Shown piece by piece: positions 2,200-29,392 of a stretch of DNA of 64,000 bases. The DNA lies in IMG/VR virus record IMGVR_UViG_3300045988_123953, one strand, 5' to 3'. Every line of letters starts with the position of its first letter. The stretch's first letter is position 1. The translations under genes and the position numbers were made by a program. A model generated the notes under the pieces. The model made no database searches and was not told the DNA's origin. It saw only the letters and a program-made list of their open reading frames with translations. Origin of the DNA: a virus.

Positions 2200-5100
2200 T
2201 GGCTTCACAATATAGTATTTTAAGGCAATATGCCCCGTATGTTAGTCCTTACAACATAGATCTTGTTAAGGACGTCATGATGTACAAACAGCAGAAGGTT
2301 GATGCTGCTCGTGAAAAGATCTATACCCAGGTAGATTATCTTATGGGTCAAGAGATAGATAAGCCTGAAGCCCGCGCTTATATGGAAGATAAGATGTCAG
2401 GTGTGATTGCTAACATCAATCAAAAATTCAAAGGCGTGGATCTTTCTTCTGATGGTGTTACGAGAGCCATACAAGGAGAGATAAGTTCGGTGTTAGATGA
2501 TACGGTCATTAACGCGATTGCCGGCACAAAAGAAGGCAAGAGGGTTATGAAGGAAATAGAATCTATAAAACAGAATCATCCTGAACTTTATTCTCCTATT
2601 AATGAATGGCATGCTTTGGACCCTTATTACAAATGGAGGTCAGATGGTAAAGCAGGATCAAGGTTGGGAGGTCTTCATTATTCTCCTTATGTCGATTATA
2701 CTAAGGAGATAAATAAGCTGGTCAGTGATTTTAGGAAAAACAACGAAGGCAAGAAGATTCAGACAACAGAATATGATGTTAAAGGTAATCCTACTGGTGG
2801 AATCATAGAAGTCAACGTAGATGAGCTTACTGATTCCCAGATAAGGAATTTTGTGTCTGCTAACTTATCTGAAAACATGAGGAATCAGATGAGAATAGAA
2901 GCATCATACATGGCAGCTACCAATCCGGTGTTCAGTAATCCGGATTTGGTTAGTCAATACATTGGGTCTTATGTCGAAAGATACGATAGGCATATAGGAG
3001 CATTGGAAGCAAAAAAGAAATCAGTAGGGGATAATAAGGATATTATTGATCGTATTGACAGTCAGATACAGGAAGCTAAAAATCAGAAAGCAGAAGCCAA
3101 GAGGGAGGCAGATATGATAATAGCTTCATCAGATCCGGTAGCGGCTGCTAATTTTGTTGTTACCAATAATCTTTTCGATAAGATGACTGATGCATGGAGA
3201 TACGACAATACAAGTTTTGAAAGGAAGAAAGATGATCTTTATTTTGCAAGGTTGGCAGAGGATAGGGCTCAGCAAAAGTTTTTGACTGACAATGCCAAGT
3301 CTATGGTTGAAATATCATTGGCGAATGAGCAGCTTGCTCAGGCTAAGATTGAAACCGAATACATGCGTACTTACGGTTCCAAGATGGGCACTGAAAGCTC
3401 ATCCGGAGGCACAAGAGGAGCAGGCGGTGTAGGAGTGCCGATGGCTCCTATGGACGGGCCTACGGCTATCAATTCTGGAACGGGTAAGATAGGATCTGTT
3501 AATTTGGCTAATATCCCTTATGAACAACTCACATCTTCTTCCACAGAGCGTAGAGCAAATTTATTGAAATTATATAATTCATTATCTCCTACAGACAGAA
3601 GCAATATCGTTGCAGCATCATACGAAGAAGAAAAAACTGACCCAGGATTGTATGCTAATATGACTCCTGAAGAACGGATATATTCTTATTTAAAAAATAA
3701 TGGAGGTCAGAAAAACGGATATTTCGGACAAGGAAATAACAGATTGTCTGAAGCTTATGATGCTTTACTTCTTTCTGATTCTAAGGCAAATGGAGCTGCA
3801 AAGGCTATAAATAACATAACTGATTATCAAATAGATAATATAGTTACTAAAAAAAATAAGGATATTATCAGGAAAGTTCGTAATGCTAAGTTTATGAAAG
3901 GAAATTCTTTTATGAATCTTACCAATACAGATGATAAGGCTGGAGCCTTCCTGCTCGCCACAGCCATAACAACTGGTGTATCTGATGCCGTAGGGTTCAG
4001 AGAATACATGATGGATCCTTCAAGAGGAATAGATATTCTTAGTGCTATATCTCCGTCATTAGGAGCTAAGGTGAGTGCCGGCAAGTTGGGGAAAAACATA
4101 TCTGATGCTATTACAAGCGAGAATAATGGTTCTTCTACTGGTACATTGGCTCTTATTAATGGAATGAAGAAACTCAATGGCGATCCTGATTTTAATATAT
4201 CTGATTATATGACCATAGATAAGGATGGTGATATAGATTTAAAAGATTATCAGGAAGGTGAACCATTGACTATTACCCAGCTAAGATATGCTGAGAAAAA
4301 CAGTAGGGTGTCTGATATGATAGCAAGTCAGATGCAGGATGAGATAAAAATGTCTGTATCTCCCGATCAGATTTCTGATAAGTTATCCCAGTATCATTAC
4401 CTTGATTCTTACAAAAGATACAATTGGAATGCCGATTCGCCGGAAAAGTCTTTGCAGAAGGCTCAGTTTAGAAGATTGTCTGGTTACATGGCAGGAAAGG
4501 TAAATAATCTGGATCCTACTGCTATTAATGCCATTAATATGGATGCCGAGATAGATAATGGCACCGTTAGAAGATTCTTGACTGCTCAAGTAGGTTTCGG
4601 TAAAAATTCTTATGTTACAGAAAGGGTTGAGATTACGAATGACGAGCTTCTTAAGGCGGGTATAGATCCTTCGGTCGAGGAGCGCAATTATCCGGTAGAT
4701 GGCTACAAATCAAGTTTTGAAACCTGTGATTTTGTAGATACCGGAAAGAAGGAAGGTTATTCTTATGATAAGTATCTTATACGTAATGGCCTTCCTCGTT
4801 TGGCTTCTAAGGCTGATGTTAAGAATGATCTTTATGATATAGTAAAGGTTCATGGTTCTTACCTTAAGCCAGAAGAAATGAATGTTGTTAAAACCCTTGT
4901 TGATAATTTTATTGACATGTCTGATAATATATCAGTTCAGTTGGAGGGAATGGACGATAGGGGTTCAAGAGAGGTAGCGGTCAATTTCTATGACAAAAGG
5001 ACTAAAAATTCTAAAAATCCTGCATTGTTGTTCTCGGATTTTGTTCCTTTGGATCCAGGTAATGATGAGTATGCGGATTACTGGAATAGCATTCACCAGA

Positions 5101-11894: not shown

Positions 11895-12425
11895 ATGAGA
11901 AGGAGATTTTTTAATGCTGCGGATAATTTCGTGGGAGGATGTTATAATAAGTTATCCAATGAAGATATAAAAAGGCTTGGAGGAAAAAGACCTTATGTAT
12001 GTCAGTTTAATAAAATTCATATACATATAGGACCTGTATTAAAAGATCATGATTCTGATGTTAGTTACATAATGTTTAATAGTAATTGGAATTATGGTGG
12101 TTATGAATCTATGGTTTATAATCATAGCAATAATGGTATTTTTATATTAGGTGAAAACAAAATTGGTAACATAGAAGATCATATACAAGATCTAACATAT
12201 TGGTACGAATATGATCCAAGCATTAATGAAAATTATTGTTATTTTTATTATGAGGCTAATAACAGCGGAAATGCTATCAAGTTGAATGGTGAGTTTGGTG
12301 ATACCAGTACTGTTTTCAACATTCCCAGCTTGGAAGTCACCACTCTTCGTGATGGCAGTTTGAGTTTTCCGGAGATTTATATAGAAGGAATTTGGGATCC
12401 GTCATTGTATAAGTCGGTTTTATAA
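11895..12425 (+). CDS. MRRRF-N-terminus family protein, paralog 1 (176 aa)
   Basis: ATG at 11895 preceded by AAGGAG (11879-11884); ORF track starts at an earlier TTG (11886). Shares the N-terminal motif MRRRF with genes at 27989 and 28611. Confidence 0.55.
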   Translation: MRRRFFNAADNFVGGCYNKLSNEDIKRLGGKRPYVCQFNKIHIHIGPVLKDHDSDVSYIMFNSNWNYGGYESMVYNHSNNGIFILGENKIGNIEDHIQDLTYWYEYDPSINENYCYFYYEANNSGNAIKLNGEFGDTSTVFNIPSLEVTTLRDGSLSFPEIYIEGIWDPSLYKSVL

Positions 12426-17465: not shown

Positions 17466-17834
17466 ATGATAGTATATGATTTAAATTCAGGACACAGAGA
17501 ATATCCTGGATATGACGAGATAGAAGACAGACGAGGTGGAGGCAGAGGCAGAAGCCGGCGTTCTGATGGGACGTACATGGGGTACGGTGGTGGTATTTAC
17601 GACCATTACGGTATGCATGAGAAGATGAAGGAAATGGAAGAACGCGAAAACGAGCTGGAAGAAAGGGAAAGAAGGCTTGAAGAGCGCGAACGTCGTCATG
17701 AAATGGAGGACCGGGAATACCGGAGGATGGGTTACGAATCCTACCCGACCGATTACTATGGAGACGACAGATACTACGGTGACGGACCTCAGATGCGTAG
17801 AGGTCGCGGACGTGGCAGAGGTCGTTCTTATTGA
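17466..17834 (+). CDS. RGG/RG-repeat and Glu/Arg-rich low-complexity protein (122 aa)
   Basis: Translation contains GGGRGRSRR, ERERRLEERERR, DRYYGDG and a C-terminal GRGRGRGRSY; ends with TGA, and the same frame stays open for a further 128 codons. Confidence 0.5.
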   Translation: MIVYDLNSGHREYPGYDEIEDRRGGGRGRSRRSDGTYMGYGGGIYDHYGMHEKMKEMEERENELEERERRLEERERRHEMEDREYRRMGYESYPTDYYGDDRYYGDGPQMRRGRGRGRGRSY

Positions 17835-17927
17835 GGAGCAGACGCAGAGGATCCAGCTTATCAGAAATATGTAGATACTTACGGCTACCATTTTTCTAAT
17901 GCTCTCGCTGATGAGGCGGTAAAGAAG

Positions 17928-18221
17928 ATGGTCAACGTCGATGGATCCAAGAGGATCTGGAAGCAGCCGGAAATAAAAGATATTTTTGAAAAGTGCGGAG
18001 CGAAGAAGCCGGATAAAGCGACATGGGGCGATGTCCAATATGTCTTTGCAATGTACTATTCGGATGGTTTTCCGAAGGTCTTCAAATGTGAGAACGAGTT
18101 GGTGAAAGCTACGTTAATGTATTTGGATGATCCGGATGCTCCCGAAGGAGTAGCCTTTATAAGATGGCTTGCCGTGCAAGATTACCTCGGCGAAAAAATA
18201 AACTGGAAGGATCTGACCTGA
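17928..18221 (+). CDS. Hypothetical protein (97 aa from first ATG; frame open back to the TGA at 17833-17835)
   Basis: Same frame as the upstream RGG gene, separated by a single TGA. Confidence 0.4.
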   Translation: MVNVDGSKRIWKQPEIKDIFEKCGAKKPDKATWGDVQYVFAMYYSDGFPKVFKCENELVKATLMYLDDPDAPEGVAFIRWLAVQDYLGEKINWKDLT

Positions 18222-18272
18222 GATCCAGATCCAGGTCCTTCCGGTGGTGCGGGAGCCATAGTAAAAAATATG

Positions 18273-18298
18273 ATTCCCGCATTCCCGTTTTTCCCGTT
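18273..18298. repeat. Three direct TTCCCG repeats (gaTTCCCGcaTTCCCGtttTTCCCGttt)
   Basis: Seen directly in the intergenic region after the 17928..18221 ORF. Confidence 0.4.
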
Positions 18299-18384
18299 TG
18301 GAAAAAAAAGAATAAAAATATTATACCGGTCGGCGGGCAATAGAATACCCGTGGCCGGTTTGTTTCACATAACTTTTTTTTGAC

Positions 18385-18561
18385 ATGAATATAGCACACG
18401 AATCTAAATCGAATAAAACCCCATTGTATTTAATAGGAGAGTTGATTGGCGTACCGAATACGGTTATGGACTCAGCATTGCATGAACTAAAAGATAGAAT
18501 AGACAAAGACCCTAAGTATAAAGATGTTAAAAATTGGCTCGAATCTTTACCCAAGATCTGA
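18385..18561 (+). CDS. Small hypothetical protein (58 aa), not in ORF track (below length cutoff)
   Basis: ATG 18385 immediately after a TTGACA box; stop TGA 18559-18561 followed by a terminator. Confidence 0.35.
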   Translation: MNIAHESKSNKTPLYLIGELIGVPNTVMDSALHELKDRIDKDPKYKDVKNWLESLPKI

Positions 18562-18584
18562 ACCTATTTTTTTTCAATACCAGG

Positions 18585-18620
18585 CCCGATGCGATTTTAA
18601 CGTATCGGGTTTTTATTTTA
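18585..18620 (+). terminator. Rho-independent terminator (stem CCCGATGCG/CGTATCGGG, then TTTTTATTTT)
   Basis: Hairpin with one mismatch plus a long T-run. Confidence 0.55.
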
Positions 18621-19012
18621 ATTCATATTGTTTTATTTTAAATCTAATTAATTCATGAATGTCGTACTTTTGTTGAAAAAGTATTCTATATGGAAAATAA
18701 GGAAGATTACGTTGGTTACGAAGATCAAGAACTGTGTAACCGGTATTACAAAGAGGCTGAAGCCATGAGGCAAAAGCAGGACTGGTCTCGGCTTAGGGCT
18801 GTCCCTGCTCCGGCCAAGGGAACGCCATCGCCCGGCTGGGGTCAGCTTGGACGTGGAAATGGTGTCCGTGTTAAGTATGTGAGTATCAATTCAGGATTGG
18901 GAGGAGATAGGTTATGACCGTAGAAGAATTAGCTAATAAAAGATACGGTGGCGAATTTGTTTTCATATCCGAAATAACATTAAAACAATATAATTTCATT
19001 ATAAGGTTTTAA

Positions 19013-19256
19013 TATCCGGACCATAAATGGTCCGGATATTAGCCTAAGCCTTGAAACGAAGGCTACGTTATTTGAGAATAGATAGTTATCTACGGATGTT
19101 TGCCCAAGTCTGTAGCTCTAAGGTGGGTGATTAAACAGGAGTAGTGTATTTGCGAAACAGTGTTGCTTACGAAAAACCTTAAATAACATTGGCGATGGGT
19201 ACTAACAGAGTTTTACTCTGACTTATGTTGAATAAACATTGAAAACGTTTGTAAGT
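19013..19256 (+). ncRNA. Putative omega-RNA (IscB guide-RNA scaffold), copy 1
   Basis: Non-coding segment immediately 5' of iscB, about 90% identical to the segment 5' of the second iscB copy; the differences include two fully compensatory changes in a 6-bp hairpin (AGCCTT-GAAACG-AAGGCT vs AGTGTT-GAAACA-AACACT) and loop-only changes in a second hairpin (CAGAGT-TTT-ACTCTG); begins with a 9-bp hairpin ATCCGGACC-ATAAAT-GGTCCGGAT. Confidence 0.55.
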
Positions 19257-20477
19257 ATGGTGTACGTACAGGATATAAATGGTAAACCTATGATGCCTAC
19301 AACGAGGCATGGTAAGGTAAGGAGACTGCTTAAAGACAAAAAGGCAATCGTTGTAAACCTATGTCCGTTTACCATCAAATTAATGTACGTTACATCTGAT
19401 TACAAACAAGAAATCGTGTTAGGCGTTGATGCTGGTACTAAACATGTTGGTTTATCAGCTACAACGAAAAGCAAAGAACTTTACAGTAGTGAAGTGATCC
19501 TTAGAAATGATATCGTAGATCTTTTGTCTACCAGAAGGGAGCTACGAAGAACAAGACGGAATAGGTTGAGGTATAGAAAACCTCGTTTCAATAATAGAAT
19601 AAAAAGCAAGCGTCCAGGATGGGTAGCACCTTCGGTGAAGTACAAAATAGACGCCCATATTCGTGTTATTGACAATGTATGTTCTATATTACCAATATCT
19701 CGTATTGTTATTGAAGTAGCTCAATTTGATACCCAAAAAATCAAGAATCCCGATATCTCCGGTAACGAATATCAGGAAGGGGATCAACTTGGTTTTTGGA
19801 ACACAAGGGAATATGTCTTGGCAAGGGATGGGCATAAATGTCAGTATTGTAAAGGGAAGTCAAAAGATAAGATCCTTAATGTCCATCATCTTGAATCCCG
19901 AAAAACGGGAGGTGATTCCCCTTCTAATCTTATTACCTTATGTGAAACTTGTCACAAAGAATACCATAAAGGTAATATAGATTTAAAGATCAGAAGAGGC
20001 AAGTCGCTCCGCGACGCAGCCGTAATGGGAATCATGAAATGGAGGTTGTATGAAGAACTAAAATCTAAATACGACAATGTTTCTATGACTTTCGGGTATG
20101 TTACAAAATACAATAGGATTAATCATGGTATTGAAAAATCCCATGTTTCTGATGCCTTTGTCATTTCTAAGAACTTCAACGCGAAACGAATCGGATGTCA
20201 ATATTTAAAACGTTTAATTCGTAGACATAACAGGCAAATACATAAAATGAAAATTTTAAAAGGAGGAAAGAAGAAAAACAATCAAGCTCCTTTTGAGGTT
20301 TTCGGTTTTAGATTGTTTGATAAAGTGTTGTATAACAATGAAATATTCTTTGTTTATGGAAGGAGGAAATCAGGGAGTTTCAATATCAGGGATTTCAACG
20401 GAGAAAATTCAAAAGATGTTTCACACAAAAAGTTTAAACTCATTAGAGGGAAGAGGCATCCGATTATATTAAAGTAA
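19257..20477 (+). CDS. iscB: IscB RNA-guided nuclease (OMEGA system), intact, 406 aa from ATG 19257
   Basis: Domain order read from the translation: PLMP-like N-terminus (NGKPMMPT), RuvC-I (VLGVDAGTKHVGLS), Arg-rich bridge helix (RRELRRTRRNRLRYRKPRF), RuvC-II (IVIEVAQFD), HNH (CQYCKGK...NVHHLESRKTGGD...LITLCETCHKEYH), RuvC-III (KSHVSDAFVIS). ORF track starts at an upstream TTG (19239); copy 2 starts at the ATG. Confidence 0.9.
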   Translation: MVYVQDINGKPMMPTTRHGKVRRLLKDKKAIVVNLCPFTIKLMYVTSDYKQEIVLGVDAGTKHVGLSATTKSKELYSSEVILRNDIVDLLSTRRELRRTRRNRLRYRKPRFNNRIKSKRPGWVAPSVKYKIDAHIRVIDNVCSILPISRIVIEVAQFDTQKIKNPDISGNEYQEGDQLGFWNTREYVLARDGHKCQYCKGKSKDKILNVHHLESRKTGGDSPSNLITLCETCHKEYHKGNIDLKIRRGKSLRDAAVMGIMKWRLYEELKSKYDNVSMTFGYVTKYNRINHGIEKSHVSDAFVISKNFNAKRIGCQYLKRLIRRHNRQIHKMKILKGGKKKNNQAPFEVFGFRLFDKVLYNNEIFFVYGRRKSGSFNIRDFNGENSKDVSHKKFKLIRGKRHPIILK

Positions 20478-21352: not shown

Positions 21353-24300
21353 ATGACATCAACGTGTATTATTAAAAGAGATAATAAAAAGAAAGTTGTT
21401 TCTGTCTCTACCAGATCAGGGGACAGGTCTATGTTGTTTGATAAAATAGCATCTATTCCTCTTATGGAGAACAGGGAACGGGCTACTACTGTTTTTAAAA
21501 CCGTATTTTCTAATAAGTTCTTAAAGGCTTTTGGTGACTGGAGAAGGAATGTACCTGTTAATAAACAGGCTTATAATAAGGTAAAATCCAACATCGGCCT
21601 TATTCCGGAAGCCTATAGAGAAAGGGTGCTGGATAAGGCTTCTAAGATGAGTAATCCTATTCTTGTGTCAAAATCAGATGCACCTTATGAAATCCGAGAA
21701 TCGGGCTTTGGATTTTACAGCCAAGATCTGGGTGATAATATTATGTTGGTGGATGCTATGGTCCCGTCAAGTATTTCTGTACCGGAAGGACCGGGAATAG
21801 ACGCCGGACAGTATCTACAAGATGCTATATCTTCGGACTTCACTCCCGTATCTATGGTACAGGATAAGGGTGTTAATTATATGGTTATAAAAGACGGTCT
21901 TAAGATATTTAGCCCAGAAGAGTTACCACAGACAGATTCTAATCCTGTGGGTGTAACGTATCAGACCGGAGAGCCTCGTTTGTTTTTCATGAACGATCGT
22001 AATCAATTATTTGAAGATTACGGAGAAGCTCTTCGCTCTGGCGGGAATGATATTAGAATAGGATTCTTATCAGGCACCGTTCAAGAATCTGCCTGGGATG
22101 GCGTGGCAGACATTACTTACAAAGCTGGAAGGTATGTTCTTAATAATCCCAAATCTTTTATACCGGTCATGACCGCTTCTGCTTCTACTTCTTTATCAAC
22201 AAAAGGTGGTATAATTAACTACCTTATAAAGAAAGGTCTTTTGTCCGGATCTAAGATATTCGATCCTGAAACAAGAAGCTATTATCTTACAGGAGAAGGT
22301 CATACAGGACAAATTAGACTTTTCAATTCAGCCTTATCCTACACCGAGCTCCGTAATCATTTTGGTTCAGATGTTTCCATGAACGACCAAGGTATGATAA
22401 CCATAAGCTCGTTGGATAATAGTAAGGTAACTATGAGGCTCGCCACCGGAGGAACGGAAAGGGTTAGCAAAGAGCAGATAAAGAACGATCTCAAGTCAGG
22501 AAGATACAATGAATTGGACGCCAAGTACGATCATTTTGATGCGCTTGTAGTTTCATTCATATTAGAAGACAACGATCTTTATGCTGATACTAAAGCTAAG
22601 ATCGTATCAGATTATAGCAGGCAGGAACGTGATCAACGAAATTCTATTGTCGAGATACTGAAAACGCTTGGCGTTAGTGTCATAGGTATGACCGATTATA
22701 TAGAGAAGTACCAAACCAAATACGGGCATGAACCTTCTGCTAAGGCATTGGCGGATATTGCTAATAACGTAATAGCAGTTGGTGAAGATGCTACTTTATC
22801 TGATTTAGTAGAAGAAACAGCCCACTTCCTTGTAGAGGCATACAGAGACCAGAATGCTGTTGAGGCTGTTCTGCAAGATGTAGAAGGTACGGAAGAGTGG
22901 AACCAGTATGCAGGTCAGTATTATAATACATACGGTAAGGTATATGAAGGAGCTGAGCTTGATAATGCTGTTAGGAGAGAAATTCTTGGAAAGATCCTTG
23001 CCAGGGAGATGCAGACCGGCACAGCACAGGCGCCGGTAGAGCCCACCTCCTTCCTGGGGCGCGTCCGGCAGCTTCTCTCTGGAATCGTAAACTGGCTTAA
23101 ATCAGCTTTATCTACCCAAAGACAAGATTTGAATAACGTTATTAAAAACATTCGTGATCTTGCTATTACCGACATAGATAAAGGATTTGATACTTCTCTT
23201 TTAAAGGATAATGATTTTACATTATACTCTCTTTCCTCTATGAACAAGAACAAGTTTCTTGAGTCTAAGATCCGGGCATTGAGAAAAACATTGAGAGACT
23301 TACGTCAGATAAGCTCTGATAGGGCTGTAACTACATCTATGACCCTTGCTCAGCTTAAGACCATAGAAGATAAGATAAATAAGGTAGAGACCGAAATAGA
23401 CAAAAATGAGATGGCGGCTGCCATGAATAGCATGATCTCCACAGCCGAAGCTCAGGTCAGATACTTAAGCAATGTAGTAAATACTATCCTTCATGGTGAT
23501 ACCAAAGACGGTAAGCTTCATTTCAATACCAATGATCGAAAGAACGTAGATATTATCAACAATCAGGTTCTTCCGATCATGAACGATCTTCGAGGATATA
23601 TCCGTAACAGAAGTACCGAATTTGATGAACGTGAAAAGCAGGATTATACAAATAGGATCAATACCGTCATTGCCGACATCAATGGTATTCAGTCTGATAT
23701 TAAGTCAGTGCAAGACCTTGATGAAAGTACGTTGCTTGATAAGTTAATGAACGAACTTCATGTGCCGGCAGATAAGGTAAAGAGAGTAAAAGAATTTTTT
23801 GACAAGGTTCAACACGATGTTTCTTGGATAAGTAGGTGGTTCGGTATATTAGAGCATTCCTCCAGCCCGTTCAACAACGCTCTCGGAGCTATGATTGCCA
23901 AAGATAATTACAATGCGATGGTAAATGCCCAGCCCGCTATATCTGATTTCCTGGCATATGCTAAAAAGCATGGTTTTAACAAATCTGAATTTGAAAAACT
24001 GCTTCAGAAAGTAGACGGCAAAACTTCCAATTACCTTCGTAGTGCTCTTGATATGGCTAAATATGATCGTAATAAGAAGTTGGCACAGATGCGTGCGTTT
24101 GCTACTGCCATGAACATAGAAATATCAGAAGAAGAAATCAATGATGTGGTTGACAATAACCGTAATTACGTATTTAAAAGAGAAGTAGTTGACAAGGACG
24201 GAAATACGGTTACTGAAAACGCTAAATTTAAGCCCTCATCTGACAGGGTTAATACTGATATTTTTACCATCGAGCAGGAAAAGATCTATACAGAACAGAT

Positions 24301-27300
24301 GGAAAAGTGGGATGCTGAAAATTCAGAATTGGAATTTAGTGAAAGTTATGCCACAAGAATGGAATCCATATACAAAAAGGCTGAAGAAGAATTGGGGTAT
24401 CCGGTTTCTCAAACAACCAAAGAATACCTTAATGCCCTATCCCGGCAAAAACGGATATTGAGGCAGCCTTTTATTGATAGCGGTGGTAATTTTGATGAGG
24501 TTGCTTACTATAAGAGTAGTAACTACGAAGAAGAAGGACTGCTTCGTAAACAACGTAAGGAAGCAGCTTCGGAATACATATATGTAGGGACCAGACGTGT
24601 TGAAAAAACCGGCGACCAACTGATGATGGCCAAAGAAATACAAGCCATAAATGAAGTTTGGAGAAAAGAATCAAATAATGCCACTAATGCCGTATCAGAA
24701 TCGTTTTTGCAAAAATTAAGAACGATTCAGAACGAGTCAGGAGGAGAAGCTGCGTTGAAGACACTTATGTTGGGAGGTCACCTGTCATTCAACGATCGGT
24801 TTTGGAATGATGTAGAATCAGAACAGTCGGCACGTACCGAATCAAATAACAAGGCTTCGTATCTTAAAATGGCGCATGATATCATTAGTTCTACGACAAG
24901 TGATAGAGATGCGACTGACGTGGATTCTATTGTGAAAGATATAGAAAAAAATAAGGCTATTATCAAGGAAATAATCGGAAACAATCGCGATGTGGCTGAT
25001 ATCGGAGAAATTAACGAAGCGACATTTACCTCATCCGAAAGAGATGCTTTTAGGGCCGCATCTGAAGCTATTGAAGCCGATTACGCTATTTTGATAGATT
25101 ATGCTAAGATGGTGGGTCTTGAAGATATTGATAAGTACCTTACTAAAAGCAGTAAGGCTGAAAACGAAGTAAATCAGTCTTATTTAAATGCTCTTGCTGA
25201 CTCCAAGGAAGTGGAATGGAAGTTCGTACAACGTCATACTACGGCGAAGAAAGCAAAAAGGATTCAGGCTTTAAGGGATAAGCTGTTTAAGGCTGCTGAT
25301 AACCGATATCTGTTTACCGTATCTGAAACCAACTACCTGTCAGAAAAGCTTGGTATAAGCAAAGAATTAGACGGTAGAGATTTCAGGAATGCTGTTAATG
25401 CTAAGATGGCCAGCTTATTTTTAAATAATACAAGAGAAGAGGGCGTAGAAGAAGCTAATGCTATTGTTAATGAATTTGCCAGAAGCCAGGTTTTTTCGTA
25501 CTATAAACGCATGGCGCCTACCGGATATGCAGCTATGATCGACAAAATCGGTCGAGGTGAGATAGATGTGGCGCAAATGGTTAAAGACGTACAGAACGGA
25601 ACATCCACCCAAGATTACGGTATGGACATATCATACCTGTCTTTTGACCCTGCAAGGGCATGGGTGGCTGAATCTGAAGCCGAAAATAGCGGCCGTAATC
25701 CTGATTATGTAAAAGATCATGGGTATGGTCATCGCATGCCCAAGAAAAGCCTGTATCGTGATGAATCGTATTTTAATGACTTTGGTATCAAGTATGATGC
25801 TGACGGTAATGAGGTCGCTACTAAAAACGTAGAGCAGTGGAATATGATTCAAAAACTCAAGGAAATAAAAAGACAATCCCTTGATCTATACAAAGAGCAG
25901 AGCCCGAACCTGTATGCTATTCCACAGATATCAAAACAAGACATAGAACGTGTAGAAGGATTGGGTATTAACTTCAAAAATACGGTTCGTAATTTTGTAT
26001 CAGATCTCTGCCTGGACAGAGTAGACGATTCTCTATACGGTAAAACCAGACAAGGGGAAGTATATGATCCGGAAGATAGGGTTCGGTCCATACCTAAATA
26101 CTACATATATGAATTAGAGAACCAAGATAACGTATCTCATGATTTTGGTTACTCTTATTCGATGCTTATGATGCAATCATCATTATACAACGAAAAGCAG
26201 AAATCTATAGAGCTTGCCCAAGGACTGGAGCAGATGTTACTGAATAAGCAATTTGAAGGCGGTAAGAAAGCTGAAGCAACCCAAGCATATCAGATGTTCA
26301 GGGACTTCTTCAATGACCATTATTATGGCATTAGGATGAACACCAAAAAACTTACGGTGAACATCGGTGGGTACACAGTAGACCTTACCAGGATAATGAT
26401 GGCCGTTGAAAGATTTATGTCGGTTATGAACCTGGCGCTGTCCCCGTTTGTGGCAGCTACCGGCGCCCTTACAGGTCATATCAACCTCATCATGGAATCT
26501 GCCGTAGGACAGTATATAAGCAAAGACTCCCTTAAATACGCATCGGCTGAATTTTCACGCCTTGCTCCATCTTGTATAGCAGAAACCGGAGACATAGATA
26601 GGAAAAGCAAATTATATGTCATAGGTGAGAGAATGGGGATATTCAATATCCGAAATCGTATGTATGGTGCCGGATATAATAGAGTGGCCAGGACCTTAAT
26701 GCGTTCACCTATGTATGCTTTTATGGAAATCCTGAACTACCCTCTTGATCCGCAGGTTATGATTGCTACTATGGACAATGTTCGTTATTACAAAGGCCGG
26801 TTCTACACGTTCCAAGATTTCAAGATGGAAAAAGAACGCAATAAAGAACAGAGTACCATAAAAAGAGAATGGAACGCATTAAAAGATCGTACTTTATGGA
26901 GTATGGTAGACGTCGTGGATGGAAAGGTGGTTGTAAAGCCCGGATCAGGTGTTACTGTTGAGGAAGTTGAAACCCAGATGGCTATAACCAGGAATCAAGT
27001 CCGTAGCTTGTCGCAGATATGTAACGGATCTTTGAATGAAGAAAACCGAACTGCCGCATCGCGCAACTGGATAGCCAGGTTCATGATCGCCCACCGAGGA
27101 TGGTTGGTGCTGGCGGCTCAACGTCTGTGGAAAAGACGTGGCTTCAATTTCCAGACAATGCAAGAAGAGGAAGGGTTGTCAATTACGTTAAAGAATATGA
27201 TAGCCAAAACATTTAGCTTAGCTTCCGAGTCTGGTATGAAAAACATCATAGATGCCTGGAACGAAAATAAAGACAATATGAATGAGGTAGAGAAAACCAA

Positions 27301-27775
27301 TCTCAAACGTCTCAGTGTCTATGCCGGCACGTTTCTTATCATGCAAGCCGTATCTATGCTTCTTGCCGGATGGCGTGATGATGATGAAAACGAAGAAAGT
27401 TGGCTTACTCAATTCGGATCCTATGTAGGATTCAGAACCATAAACGAAATAGCTTCACAGATGCCGTTTATTATGGAGCTTAACGTTGTAGATATCATTA
27501 ACGACCCGTTTGTTATGGGACGGAAGCTGAAGGATCTTACCGATCTTAGGAATTATTCACTTGATAAAGTAACATCCGGTACATACAAGGGAGAGTCTAA
27601 GTTATTTAGGCAACTCGTCAAACAGACGTTTATCAAACAATGGTATAACATTAAGACGCCGGAAGACGTAGCACGCGCCTATAACTGGTGGCAGCAGACG
27701 AACAACAAGTCAATGATGTTTTTCATCGGTGCCACTCCTGATTCAGAAGGAGACGATGATGTGAGCTACAAGTAG
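21353..27775 (+). CDS. Giant hypothetical protein (2140 aa), probably virion-associated; coiled-coil-rich with a C-terminal hydrophobic segment
   Basis: 6.4-kb uninterrupted ORF after a promoter-like AT-rich gap. Confidence 0.65.
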   Translation: MTSTCIIKRDNKKKVVSVSTRSGDRSMLFDKIASIPLMENRERATTVFKTVFSNKFLKAFGDWRRNVPVNKQAYNKVKSNIGLIPEAYRERVLDKASKMSNPILVSKSDAPYEIRESGFGFYSQDLGDNIMLVDAMVPSSISVPEGPGIDAGQYLQDAISSDFTPVSMVQDKGVNYMVIKDGLKIFSPEELPQTDSNPVGVTYQTGEPRLFFMNDRNQLFEDYGEALRSGGNDIRIGFLSGTVQESAWDGVADITYKAGRYVLNNPKSFIPVMTASASTSLSTKGGIINYLIKKGLLSGSKIFDPETRSYYLTGEGHTGQIRLFNSALSYTELRNHFGSDVSMNDQGMITISSLDNSKVTMRLATGGTERVSKEQIKNDLKSGRYNELDAKYDHFDALVVSFILEDNDLYADTKAKIVSDYSRQERDQRNSIVEILKTLGVSVIGMTDYIEKYQTKYGHEPSAKALADIANNVIAVGEDATLSDLVEETAHFLVEAYRDQNAVEAVLQDVEGTEEWNQYAGQYYNTYGKVYEGAELDNAVRREILGKILAREMQTGTAQAPVEPTSFLGRVRQLLSGIVNWLKSALSTQRQDLNNVIKNIRDLAITDIDKGFDTSLLKDNDFTLYSLSSMNKNKFLESKIRALRKTLRDLRQISSDRAVTTSMTLAQLKTIEDKINKVETEIDKNEMAAAMNSMISTAEAQVRYLSNVVNTILHGDTKDGKLHFNTNDRKNVDIINNQVLPIMNDLRGYIRNRSTEFDEREKQDYTNRINTVIADINGIQSDIKSVQDLDESTLLDKLMNELHVPADKVKRVKEFFDKVQHDVSWISRWFGILEHSSSPFNNALGAMIAKDNYNAMVNAQPAISDFLAYAKKHGFNKSEFEKLLQKVDGKTSNYLRSALDMAKYDRNKKLAQMRAFATAMNIEISEEEINDVVDNNRNYVFKREVVDKDGNTVTENAKFKPSSDRVNTDIFTIEQEKIYTEQMEKWDAENSELEFSESYATRMESIYKKAEEELGYPVSQTTKEYLNALSRQKRILRQPFIDSGGNFDEVAYYKSSNYEEEGLLRKQRKEAASEYIYVGTRRVEKTGDQLMMAKEIQAINEVWRKESNNATNAVSESFLQKLRTIQNESGGEAALKTLMLGGHLSFNDRFWNDVESEQSARTESNNKASYLKMAHDIISSTTSDRDATDVDSIVKDIEKNKAIIKEIIGNNRDVADIGEINEATFTSSERDAFRAASEAIEADYAILIDYAKMVGLEDIDKYLTKSSKAENEVNQSYLNALADSKEVEWKFVQRHTTAKKAKRIQALRDKLFKAADNRYLFTVSETNYLSEKLGISKELDGRDFRNAVNAKMASLFLNNTREEGVEEANAIVNEFARSQVFSYYKRMAPTGYAAMIDKIGRGEIDVAQMVKDVQNGTSTQDYGMDISYLSFDPARAWVAESEAENSGRNPDYVKDHGYGHRMPKKSLYRDESYFNDFGIKYDADGNEVATKNVEQWNMIQKLKEIKRQSLDLYKEQSPNLYAIPQISKQDIERVEGLGINFKNTVRNFVSDLCLDRVDDSLYGKTRQGEVYDPEDRVRSIPKYYIYELENQDNVSHDFGYSYSMLMMQSSLYNEKQKSIELAQGLEQMLLNKQFEGGKKAEATQAYQMFRDFFNDHYYGIRMNTKKLTVNIGGYTVDLTRIMMAVERFMSVMNLALSPFVAATGALTGHINLIMESAVGQYISKDSLKYASAEFSRLAPSCIAETGDIDRKSKLYVIGERMGIFNIRNRMYGAGYNRVARTLMRSPMYAFMEILNYPLDPQVMIATMDNVRYYKGRFYTFQDFKMEKERNKEQSTIKREWNALKDRTLWSMVDVVDGKVVVKPGSGVTVEEVETQMAITRNQVRSLSQICNGSLNEENRTAASRNWIARFMIAHRGWLVLAAQRLWKRRGFNFQTMQEEEGLSITLKNMIAKTFSLASESGMKNIIDAWNENKDNMNEVEKTNLKRLSVYAGTFLIMQAVSMLLAGWRDDDENEESWLTQFGSYVGFRTINEIASQMPFIMELNVVDIINDPFVMGRKLKDLTDLRNYSLDKVTSGTYKGESKLFRQLVKQTFIKQWYNIKTPEDVARAYNWWQQTNNKSMMFFIGATPDSEGDDDVSYK

Positions 27776-27988: not shown

Positions 27989-28606
27989 ATGAGACGAAGA
28001 TTTCAAATAGGGATGGGGGTAAATCCCTCGCTTATAATCAATAAAGGCATATACATCCAACATGTAGATGGAGGATTATATACAAAAGAAAATTGGTCTA
28101 ATAAAGGATATTCCAATGATCTATGCAATGGAATAGCTCTTGTAGATAAAGTGTGTTTTGTTATAGCCACCGAATATATTGGCACATTTAGTTGGGGTAA
28201 GGATGGAAGAGTAGACAATGTATTTGCACAAAATAGTTCTTATATGGAGACCGTTAAAAAGGATTATTGGGGGCGTGAAAATCAGAATGCGTATCTTGAA
28301 TATGATACCAGTAATGAAAATTACGCTTTTAATAAAGCTAATAGCTATTTATTTAAAAATGGTCAAAATGGATATGTAGGTGGCGCCGGAGAGTTTTTTT
28401 TGATATCATTGTATGCGAATGAAATAAACGAATGCCTTTTAATGGTAGGAGGTACGATAATGAGTAATAAAATGTGGACATCCACTCAATCTACACAATT
28501 TACCTATTCGTGGTATTATGATATAAACATCCAAGGAGATCATTTGGATACAAGTACAAGGAGTAATCCACGTTATGTCCGCCCCTTTACCGAATTAATT
28601 TTATGA
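27989..28606 (+). CDS. MRRRF-N-terminus family protein, paralog 2 (205 aa)
   Basis: ORF track opens at 27878, but the conserved MRRRF start maps to ATG 27989; contains a T8 tract in frame (28393-28400). Confidence 0.5.
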   Translation: MRRRFQIGMGVNPSLIINKGIYIQHVDGGLYTKENWSNKGYSNDLCNGIALVDKVCFVIATEYIGTFSWGKDGRVDNVFAQNSSYMETVKKDYWGRENQNAYLEYDTSNENYAFNKANSYLFKNGQNGYVGGAGEFFLISLYANEINECLLMVGGTIMSNKMWTSTQSTQFTYSWYYDINIQGDHLDTSTRSNPRYVRPFTELIL

Positions 28607-28610
28607 AATT

Positions 28611-29346
28611 ATGAGAAGAAGATTTGAAAATAATGCTAAACTATATGAGTATAAGATAGTTAGCAATTGTATAGGGGGGGGTAATCGTAGAAGGAAAGAA
28701 AGTAGGCACCATTCCACAGGGCGGGCAATTTATCTTTCTGTCTAAAAAAGAACGGCTGGATTCCATAAGTGTCCAAGGCGGTGTTCCAATGGAAGATAGG
28801 CAAGAGATCGATAGTCAGGTTGATACGACAGAGGAATTGCTTGAACAGGATTCGGTGGTTCTTTATATTGTTTTAACAACCTCTCCTCATTATGGATTTG
28901 GAGTAAGTGTGATAGCACCTGATGAGTTTACGCTAAGAACAACCAATAGGATTAATAGAACCTTTTTAATAACAAGCTTTACTCCACCTGCTGCTATATA
29001 CGGTGTAAACTTTGGTGATCCTATTGTCCTTAATTATGATAGTTACCAATATGAGATGCCAGATCTTGTAATTGATGGACCTCATGATAGAATAGTTAGG
29101 GCAGATCCTAATCTTACTTGGGTTGTAAGATGTACAGACGCCGACTTTAAACCTTTGCCATATCCAGAATCATGGTCTGGCCAAGGTTTAAATTCTATGT
29201 TCTTATCAGATATAAAACGTCTTGCTCCTGGTGATCATCATGTATCATATACAGCTTATATTAATTTGGACTTGATAGATGATGGCGGAAGTAAAGTTCA
29301 TACTGAATATCTGATATTAGAAAAAACACTTAATTTTACGATATGA
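28611..29346 (+). CDS. MRRRF-N-terminus family protein, paralog 3, split by a frameshift at a G8 tract (frame A 28611..28745, frame A+1 28675..29346)
   Basis: ATG 28611 (MRRRFENNAKLYEYKIVSNCIGG) runs into 8 consecutive G at 28674-28681. The +1 frame opens immediately after a TAG at 28672-28674 and continues for 221 codons, matching ORF track 28789..29346. Removing one G gives a single ~244-aa product. Confidence 0.5.
28674..28681 (+). repeat. G8 homopolymer tract at the frame junction of the gene above; candidate slipped-strand phase-variation site or programmed frameshift site
   Basis: Counted directly; G8 is highly unexpected in this AT-rich sequence. Confidence 0.85.
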
Positions 29347-29392
29347 CAACAATCCCCAACCGTACGCCTATTGTATGGTTGGGGATTGTTGT
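29346..29392. repeat. Perfect 16-bp inverted repeat (ACAACAATCCCCAACC ...15-nt loop... GGTTGGGGATTGTTGT) at the convergence point of the + and - modules
   Basis: Read directly; lies between the stop of the + gene ending 29346 and the stop of the - gene ending 29436. Confidence 0.8.

Follow-up and report, generated by a model that had tools for sequence, protein, structure and literature searches.

In bacteria, contingency loci are formed by polyG or polyC tracts in the surface-structure genes of Campylobacter, Neisseria and Haemophilus. In phages, receptor-binding proteins (RBPs) and tail fibres have a modular design in which a conserved N-terminal anchor is combined with exchangeable C-terminal domains. 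Contingency loci in phages are said to have been recognised only recently, in Campylobacter phages in 2021 and in T-even phages in 2025, with laboratory lysates reportedly forming the basis so far. In the Campylobacter phages, a G homopolymer in a coding region reportedly switches the reading frame and gives rise to mixed phage populations, with a link to host recognition. Hypermutable polyG tracts in these (Fletchervirus) phages are attributed to Sorensen et al. 2021 (Cell Rep 35:109214), as cited in PMC12823448 and PMC10877375. The contingency loci of T2 and T4 are simple-sequence repeats in which polymerase slippage causes reversible +/-1 frameshifts, which has been read as bet-hedging; these repeats are mostly A runs of 6-9 in the AT-rich T-even genomes, and mutants arise at ~1e-4 to 1e-3 per population (Gomez, Barrick & Waters 2025, PMC12633550). 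Our literature searches brought up no phase-variation report for crAss-like phages or for the phage lineage described here, and no paper on phage csAssE-Sib. A phage contingency locus is a known kind of element, and the locus that we describe in a 64-kb stretch of viral DNA (64,000 nucleotides, the window) would be a new member in this phage lineage.

This locus shares with the Campylobacter phages a G run in a coding region, frame switching by tract length and, as proposed, mixed populations and a link to host recognition; however, it belongs to another phage lineage with a host probably from another phylum and encodes an unrelated protein, and our evidence is a census of metagenome assemblies whereas theirs came from clonal lysates. 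A repeat within a phage gene, frameshifts by slippage and the reading as bet-hedging are shared with T2 and T4, but here the repeat is a run of G9-G10, about half of the natural assemblies have it out of frame in their consensus, and it lies not in agt or rIIA but in an accessory gene of the structural module. With the bacterial loci it has in common a 5'-proximal homopolymer in a fast-evolving and, here, probably surface-related gene, ON/OFF switching by frameshift and, possibly, several loci that switch independently; in contrast to them, the present locus is virus-borne, and switching would take place in phage replication and act on properties of the virion or of infection, not on the cell surface. 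Finally, an N-terminal module on unrelated bodies, an excess of amino acid changes and a gene in the structural block are all in common with modular RBPs and tail fibres, whereas the protein is short (245 aa) and shows no recognisable features of a trimeric fibre or spike.

The nearest GenBank record is phage csAssE-Sib (OR575929, L001), a 151-kb human-gut phage that is ~95% identical in the flanks and the only GenBank phage that shares the locus; the Cellulophaga phages phi4:1 and phi17:2 (~145 kb) are more distant relatives. The phage of the window is itself a human-gut podovirus of ~150 kb with a distant relationship to Cellulophaga phages, and the Cellulophaga phage relatives together with BACON-domain relatives of the protein suggest a Bacteroidota host. 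At the locus (3912-4361), csAssE-Sib keeps the first ~22 nt (MRRRFEN) and continues into an unrelated 149-aa body without a G tract. Compared with 28611-29346 of the window this is a cassette replacement, in which the downstream hairpin is shared, and the stretch after the stop codon of the 149-aa gene resembles positions 28630-28660 of the window.

The locus in the window consists of the following features, where ON and OFF denote alleles in which the 5' part of the gene and its body are in one frame or in different frames.

27989..28606, + strand: upstream partner gene of 205 aa, which starts MRRRFQ and ends 4 nt before the ATG at 28611
28611..28673, + strand: 5' part of the G-tract gene in frame 0, encoding MRRRFENNAKLYEYKIVSNCI, the first strands of the N-terminal module
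28674..28681, + strand: polyG tract, G8, an OFF allele in the window, encoding the Gly-Gly(-Gly) of the module
28675..29346, + strand: gene body in the +1 frame, 223 codons and a stop, recognised by HMM and homologues
28682..28745, + strand: out-of-frame tail of the 44-aa G8 product, in frame 0 to a TAA stop
28745..28750, + strand: A6 run, where some relatives (P0133, L059) have a second, minor frameshift site
29346..29392, no strand: hairpin with 20-nt arms (95% complementary) and a 7-nt loop, between convergent + and - strand gene blocks

The 5' part, opened by the ATG at 28611, reads MRRRFENNAKLYEYKIVSNCIGGG and is followed by the eight G's; its sequence is identical in 34 related contigs. 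Frame 0 from this ATG specifies 44 aa and stops at 28745; a TAG at 28672-28674 directly precedes the open +1 frame, which extends from 28675 to the stop at 29346 and has 38 open codons upstream of its first ATG. A preliminary description of this DNA had placed the ATG at 28611, the G8 run after it and the +1 frame at 28675-29346, and all of these coordinates are exact. It had also predicted that a tract of G7 or G10 would yield a single protein of ~244 aa; sequences rebuilt in this way indeed encode one protein of 244 or 245 aa, and those with G8 or G9 encode none. A fused product of the 5' part and the body is only possible with G7, G10 or G13, and G10 is the ON length in the sub-family to which the gene of the window belongs (sub-family A, see below). 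The tract occupies codons 22-24 of the 245-codon gene, and the gene body completes the N-terminal module, which extends to ~residue 60, and also encodes a short helix and two beta-sandwich regions. At the A6 run, the 63-aa protein P0133 switches frame after FLSKK, and L059 shows the same type of truncation.

The G8 run at 28674-28681 is the sole run of G or C of at least 7 in the window, the next longest G run being G6, and there are no C runs of at least 6. The run had been called highly unexpected in this AT-rich genome, which overstates the case as far as composition is concerned: a first-order Markov model expects ~0.19 G runs of at least 8 per window. GGG is the rarest Gly codon of the window (12.6% of Gly codons) and GGG-GGG occurs in none of the 48 Gly-Gly pairs of its other genes. 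The tract is therefore only mildly surprising from base composition but unusual in coding terms.

Several lines of evidence show that the two frames belong to one domain of one gene. Using the fused protein as query, 214 homologues were found, and among the best 120 of these more than 100 are 242-249 aa long, mostly 245 aa, with 100% query cover and 77-94% identity; these intact 245-aa homologues correspond to a G10 tract, and the junctions in the homologues read CIGGGV, CIGGEV, CIGGGEV and similar. Moreover, an HMM of the N-terminal module (alignment A2) matches frame 0 (28599-28742) with its positions 1-24 (E = 1.5e-12) and the +1 frame (28675-29343) with its positions 23-66 (E = 1.2e-13), which places the break exactly at the tract and inside a single domain and bears out the earlier view that the tract sits at the frame junction of one gene. 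In distant proteins the module always runs unbroken across the Gly-Gly site, and every member of the module family has Gly22 and Gly23, the two residues encoded at the tract. Reassignment of TAG to an amino acid was considered as a way of joining the frames and was rejected, given that the giant genes on either side read through without stops in the standard code and that the homologues link the frames via the G tract and not via the TAG.

Pattern scans of IMG/VR and of metagenome contigs recovered 83 copies of the gene, including that of the window, in four sub-families; of the degenerate patterns, the version with AGY serine codons recovered copies and the version with TCN serine codons gave no matches. 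The tract is present in 73 of the 83 copies, from viral as well as metagenome contigs (sub-families A, B and C), and ranges from G7 to G12, with about half of these copies out of frame.

Sub-family A (gene of the window), junction VIVEGKK: 26 ON and 22 OFF; tract forms G10 (18 copies), G9 (13), G8 (3), G8AGG/G8AAG (4), G7AGG (3), G12 (1), GGGGGGC (1) and G11; in-frame substitution variants G5AG4, G6AG3, G5TG4 and G9A
Sub-family B, junction VIIDDE, body ~50% identical: 6 ON and 9 OFF; G9, G10, G11 and G6AG3
Sub-family C, junction CYVNNE, ON length G9: 3 ON and 7 OFF; G8, G9 and G7AGG
Sub-family D, Gly-Gly encoded as GGC GGA ACC: 7 ON and 3 OFF; site invariant in 10 of 10 copies

Not every OFF copy is explained by the tract: two of the seven in sub-family C are broken at other sites, and the three in sub-family D are truncated elsewhere, one of them by a deletion traced to an A6 run that became A5. 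In sub-family A, G10 gives a product of 245 aa, G9 one of 24 aa and G8 one of 44 aa. The preliminary description had proposed comparing tract length in related genomes, and this comparison finds G7 to G12 at the same site within identical flanks: L021 (G10), L032 (G12) and L033 (G9) show no differences over ~1,290 flanking bases. A tree of the 1.3-kb flanks requires at least 7 ON/OFF changes and at least 11 tract changes among 24 taxa, with ON and OFF alleles interleaved among near-identical genomes. Between very close relatives, tract length thus changes at a much higher rate than single bases do, and the scatter of ON and OFF states on this tree of assembled contigs suggests indirectly that the switch may be reversible.

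The gene directly upstream (27989-28606) also contains homopolymers of variable length, G5 at 28015-28019 and T8 at 28394-28401; in 19 of 45 related contigs (42%) its frame is disrupted, mainly at the 5'-proximal G run (G6 in seven contigs, G9 in two and G4 in one) and at the T8 run (T7 or T9). The states of the two genes are independent, the combinations of upstream gene and G-tract gene being ON/ON in 12, ON/OFF in 14, OFF/ON in 11 and OFF/OFF in 8 cases. The upstream gene may be a second switch that operates via its own short G and T runs, and independent switching of both genes would give four combinations. Downstream, the unit likely ends with its transcript at the hairpin at 29346-29392, which is kept in csAssE-Sib; a simple terminator scan does not call this hairpin because it is not followed by a T run.

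Combining the tract census with the homologue and flank data, we suggest that the G tract is a hypermutable simple-sequence repeat that acts as a slipped-strand ON/OFF switch, i.e. a contingency locus, for the gene at 28611-29346, that this switch is OFF in the window and that it controls a modular Ig-like protein. We consider this the best reading and put its probability at about 0.68. In this scheme, the polymerase would slip on the run during phage DNA replication and add or remove G's; alleles with G10 (or with G7, G13 or the in-frame interrupted forms) would produce the 245-aa protein, and in alleles with G8, G9, G11 or G12 translation would end after 24-44 residues. Switching would generate mixed phage populations with and without the protein, that is, a form of bet-hedging, and the in-frame interruptions G5AG4, G6AG3, G5TG4 and G7AGG would lock or stabilise the ON state. 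The features of a contingency locus that are found here are a repeat inside the gene, a raised rate of length change and ON/OFF switching of the frame. The earlier proposal of slipped-strand phase variation is thus well supported at the DNA level, with the states scattered on the tree and the OFF bodies intact.

The tract lengths in the census are consensus lengths in assembled contigs, and if the true tract were always in frame, G8 and G9 would have to be homopolymer errors of sequencing or assembly. Such an artefact is hard to reconcile with an indel map against the window in which 32 of 34 contigs differ at the tract, whereas the adjacent structural gene (21353-27775; 6.4 kb, 2140 aa) has no 1-2-nt indels, its A7 run included, in the 11-30 of the same contigs that cover it. 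Homopolymers are error-prone, and the G12 allele of L032 comes from a contig with 1.1x coverage, but consensus errors are far too rare to account for out-of-frame tracts in about half of 73 independent assemblies, and the in-frame alleles interrupted by substitutions and the G7AGG and G8AGG pairs are not explicable as stutter. In addition, the GGC GGA ACC site of sub-family D is constant in all ten copies, and clusters of OFF-type proteins with falsely called starts (TTG for MYRGG..., 226 aa; MYVNN..., 221 aa) recur on many contigs, as exemplified by P0109 with 51 members on 13 contigs. Taken together, an artefact is highly improbable. Alternatively, the gene might never be truly OFF if ribosomal frameshifting or transcriptional slippage on the G run restored the frame, and a +1 ribosomal slip had indeed been put forward as one route to the fused protein. 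Long G runs can slip in transcription or translation, and the +1 frame with its 38 open codons upstream of the first ATG is compatible with such recoding; the relatives are not, for their majority allele is plainly in frame, their OFF alleles would need different shifts (+1 for G8 and -1 for G9, with G11, G12 and G8AGG also occurring) and the G9 alleles have a TAA stop directly after the tract. Of the hallmarks of programmed ribosomal frameshifting, neither a conserved out-of-frame layout nor a downstream stimulator was found: no stimulatory RNA structure was detected downstream of the tract, the folding of 28664-28790 being no better than that of shuffled sequences (z = 0.39). We therefore regard recoding, and with it the +1 slip, as improbable.

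A serious rival, which we nevertheless consider unlikely, is that the tract is a non-adaptive mutational hotspot in a dispensable accessory gene that undergoes repeated loss of function under weak selection. The G-tract gene and its upstream neighbour may simply be dispensable and often lost, as could be read from the truncation of three of the ten tract-less sub-family D copies by other indels, from the disruption of the upstream gene in 42% of the contigs, from the lack of this gene body altogether in csAssE-Sib and from an omega of at least 1 in the gene body. In 36 full-length sub-family A alleles, 116 nonsynonymous and 28 synonymous changes segregate (omega ~1.6 for the gene body), and this omega could in part come from relaxed constraint. 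The nonsynonymous changes cluster at residues ~85-104 and 165-204 (roughly 28865-28925 and 29105-29225), where blocks of 20 codons hold 17, 17 and 19 of them versus 2-4 synonymous changes. However, the downstream frame of 220 codons is intact to the normal stop in each of the 22 OFF alleles of sub-family A, and the frame is likewise complete in six of seven evaluable OFF alleles in sub-family B and four of six in sub-family C; none of the 144 segregating changes is a nonsense change, compared with 4.6 predicted by a neutral model. The N-terminal module is under purifying selection (dN/dS = 0.2-0.3), and ON and OFF alleles alternate among near-identical genomes. Moreover, the G tract is kept against codon bias in three sub-families with bodies that are only ~50% identical; its retention, even though sub-family D tolerates GGC GGA at the same site and GGG is the rarest Gly codon, is counted in favour of the slipped-strand switch. 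A diversity-generating retroelement was also considered as the cause of body hypervariability and was rejected: the 64-kb window contains neither a repeat of the gene body nor a convincing reverse transcriptase.

What the switch would control is a protein with a conserved N-terminal module and exchangeable bodies. The first ~60 residues have the motif MRRR..Y.Y.I.SNC.GG.V.VDG..VG.I...GGVP, and a profile search of 1.8 billion cluster representatives found this module at the N terminus of many proteins of 190-590 aa with unrelated bodies, and as internal repeats in BACON-domain proteins of 650-1270 aa. Within the present set, L025, L029, L035 and L079 as well as protein P0129 join the sub-family A module to a different body. 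These are recombinants, in which an A module with G10 is followed after ~residue 60 by a D-type 'YEFK' body, and the four recombinants L025, L029, L035 and L079 are all ON.

Pfam, PHROG and PDB sequence searches with the protein gave no match, nor did a tblastn search of GenBank phages. The best Pfam indication for the module as a PEGA domain (PF08308) is below the gathering threshold (best E-value 0.03), and other sub-threshold matches are to TcaA_3rd_4th (E = 0.002) and DUF2846 (E = 0.014); the N-terminal ~60-residue beta module is possibly PEGA-like. An AF2 model of the 245-aa protein is all-beta (pLDDT 75) with a low-confidence loop at residues 129-144, and fold searches with this model returned only generic beta-sandwich and Ig-like/adhesin domain matches.

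The G-tract gene is the last gene of the + strand virion structural block. Its position at the end of this block, the end of the unit at the hairpin, the swapped bodies and the mainly amino-acid-changing variation of the body lead us to suggest that the protein is most likely an accessory protein of the fibre, adhesin or decoration type that acts at the virion surface or in host interaction. The Ig-like and adhesin fold matches and the repeats of the module in BACON-domain proteins are further traits typical of host-interaction proteins. The preliminary description had drawn an analogy to tail-fibre and receptor-binding genes. The layout of such proteins is present, i.e. a conserved N-terminal module, exchangeable and diversifying bodies and a gene in the structural module, and to this extent the analogy is plausible; the searches revealed no characterised RBP that resembles the protein in sequence or in specific fold, with generic Ig-like folds as the only matches, and the analogy is unproven.

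If the slipped-strand switch operates as suggested, the mechanism described for laboratory phages would be at work in natural human-gut phage populations, with OFF as the consensus in about half of the assemblies and not as a rare variant. The interest of the locus lies in the ~50% OFF state at the population scale, in the conservation of the tract across sub-families and in the second variable gene adjoining it, and it provides a concrete case in which to test how a gut phage that is abundant but uncultured varies a protein with a probable role at the surface or in host interaction. More tentatively, and with doubt prevailing over the scheme as a whole, the end of the structural block might, in a widespread human-gut phage lineage, hold two adjacent, independently switching contingency genes, both with an MRRRF start and 5'-proximal G runs and each ~50% OFF, of which one combines a conserved anchor module with swappable, diversifying Ig-like domains, so that (i) four virion-surface states would be generated, (ii) bet-hedging by phase variation would be documented for the first time at the population scale in an uncultured gut phage and (iii) MRRR-Y.Y.I.SNC.GG would be an undescribed attachment domain for accessory virion proteins.

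The locus also carries a warning for annotation. Gene callers turn OFF alleles into proteins of 185, 221 or 226 aa with false starts, or miss the gene. Among database entries of this kind are P0074, P0076 and P0109, and the 221-aa MYVNN-type 'uncharacterised Podoviridae protein' in UniProt/BFVD (BFVD A0A8S5MGK9) is likely a mis-called OFF allele.

Several further observations concern the surroundings of the locus. ATGAGAMGAAGATWT (MRRRF) begins three + strand genes of the window, at 11895-11909, 27989-28003 and 28611-28625, i.e. three matches versus 0.06 expected by chance, and a weaker - strand copy lies at 51060-51042. A giant structural gene precedes each of the genes at 11895 and 27989, and the gene at 28611 follows that at 27989 after 4 nt; the bodies of the three genes are unrelated, and the MRRR start is also kept in distant members of the N-terminal module family. 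The MRRRF start could serve as a signal for virion targeting, provide a context for initiation or mark a site of recombination. At 17834-19239, 1.4 kb contain no ORF of at least 100 aa and yet are 98-99% conserved in relatives; this stretch holds A8 and T8 runs of varying length and is directly followed by an ORF for an HNH endonuclease (phrog_119) at 19239-20477. The stretch might represent an intron or homing element, or else a gene that homopolymer shifts have split up. A tRNA scan of the window found no tRNAs. On the - strand at 37831-39531, the window encodes a 566-aa protein with SPFH/Band 7 and flotillin domains (Pfam E = 2.5e-25), an unusual cargo for a phage.
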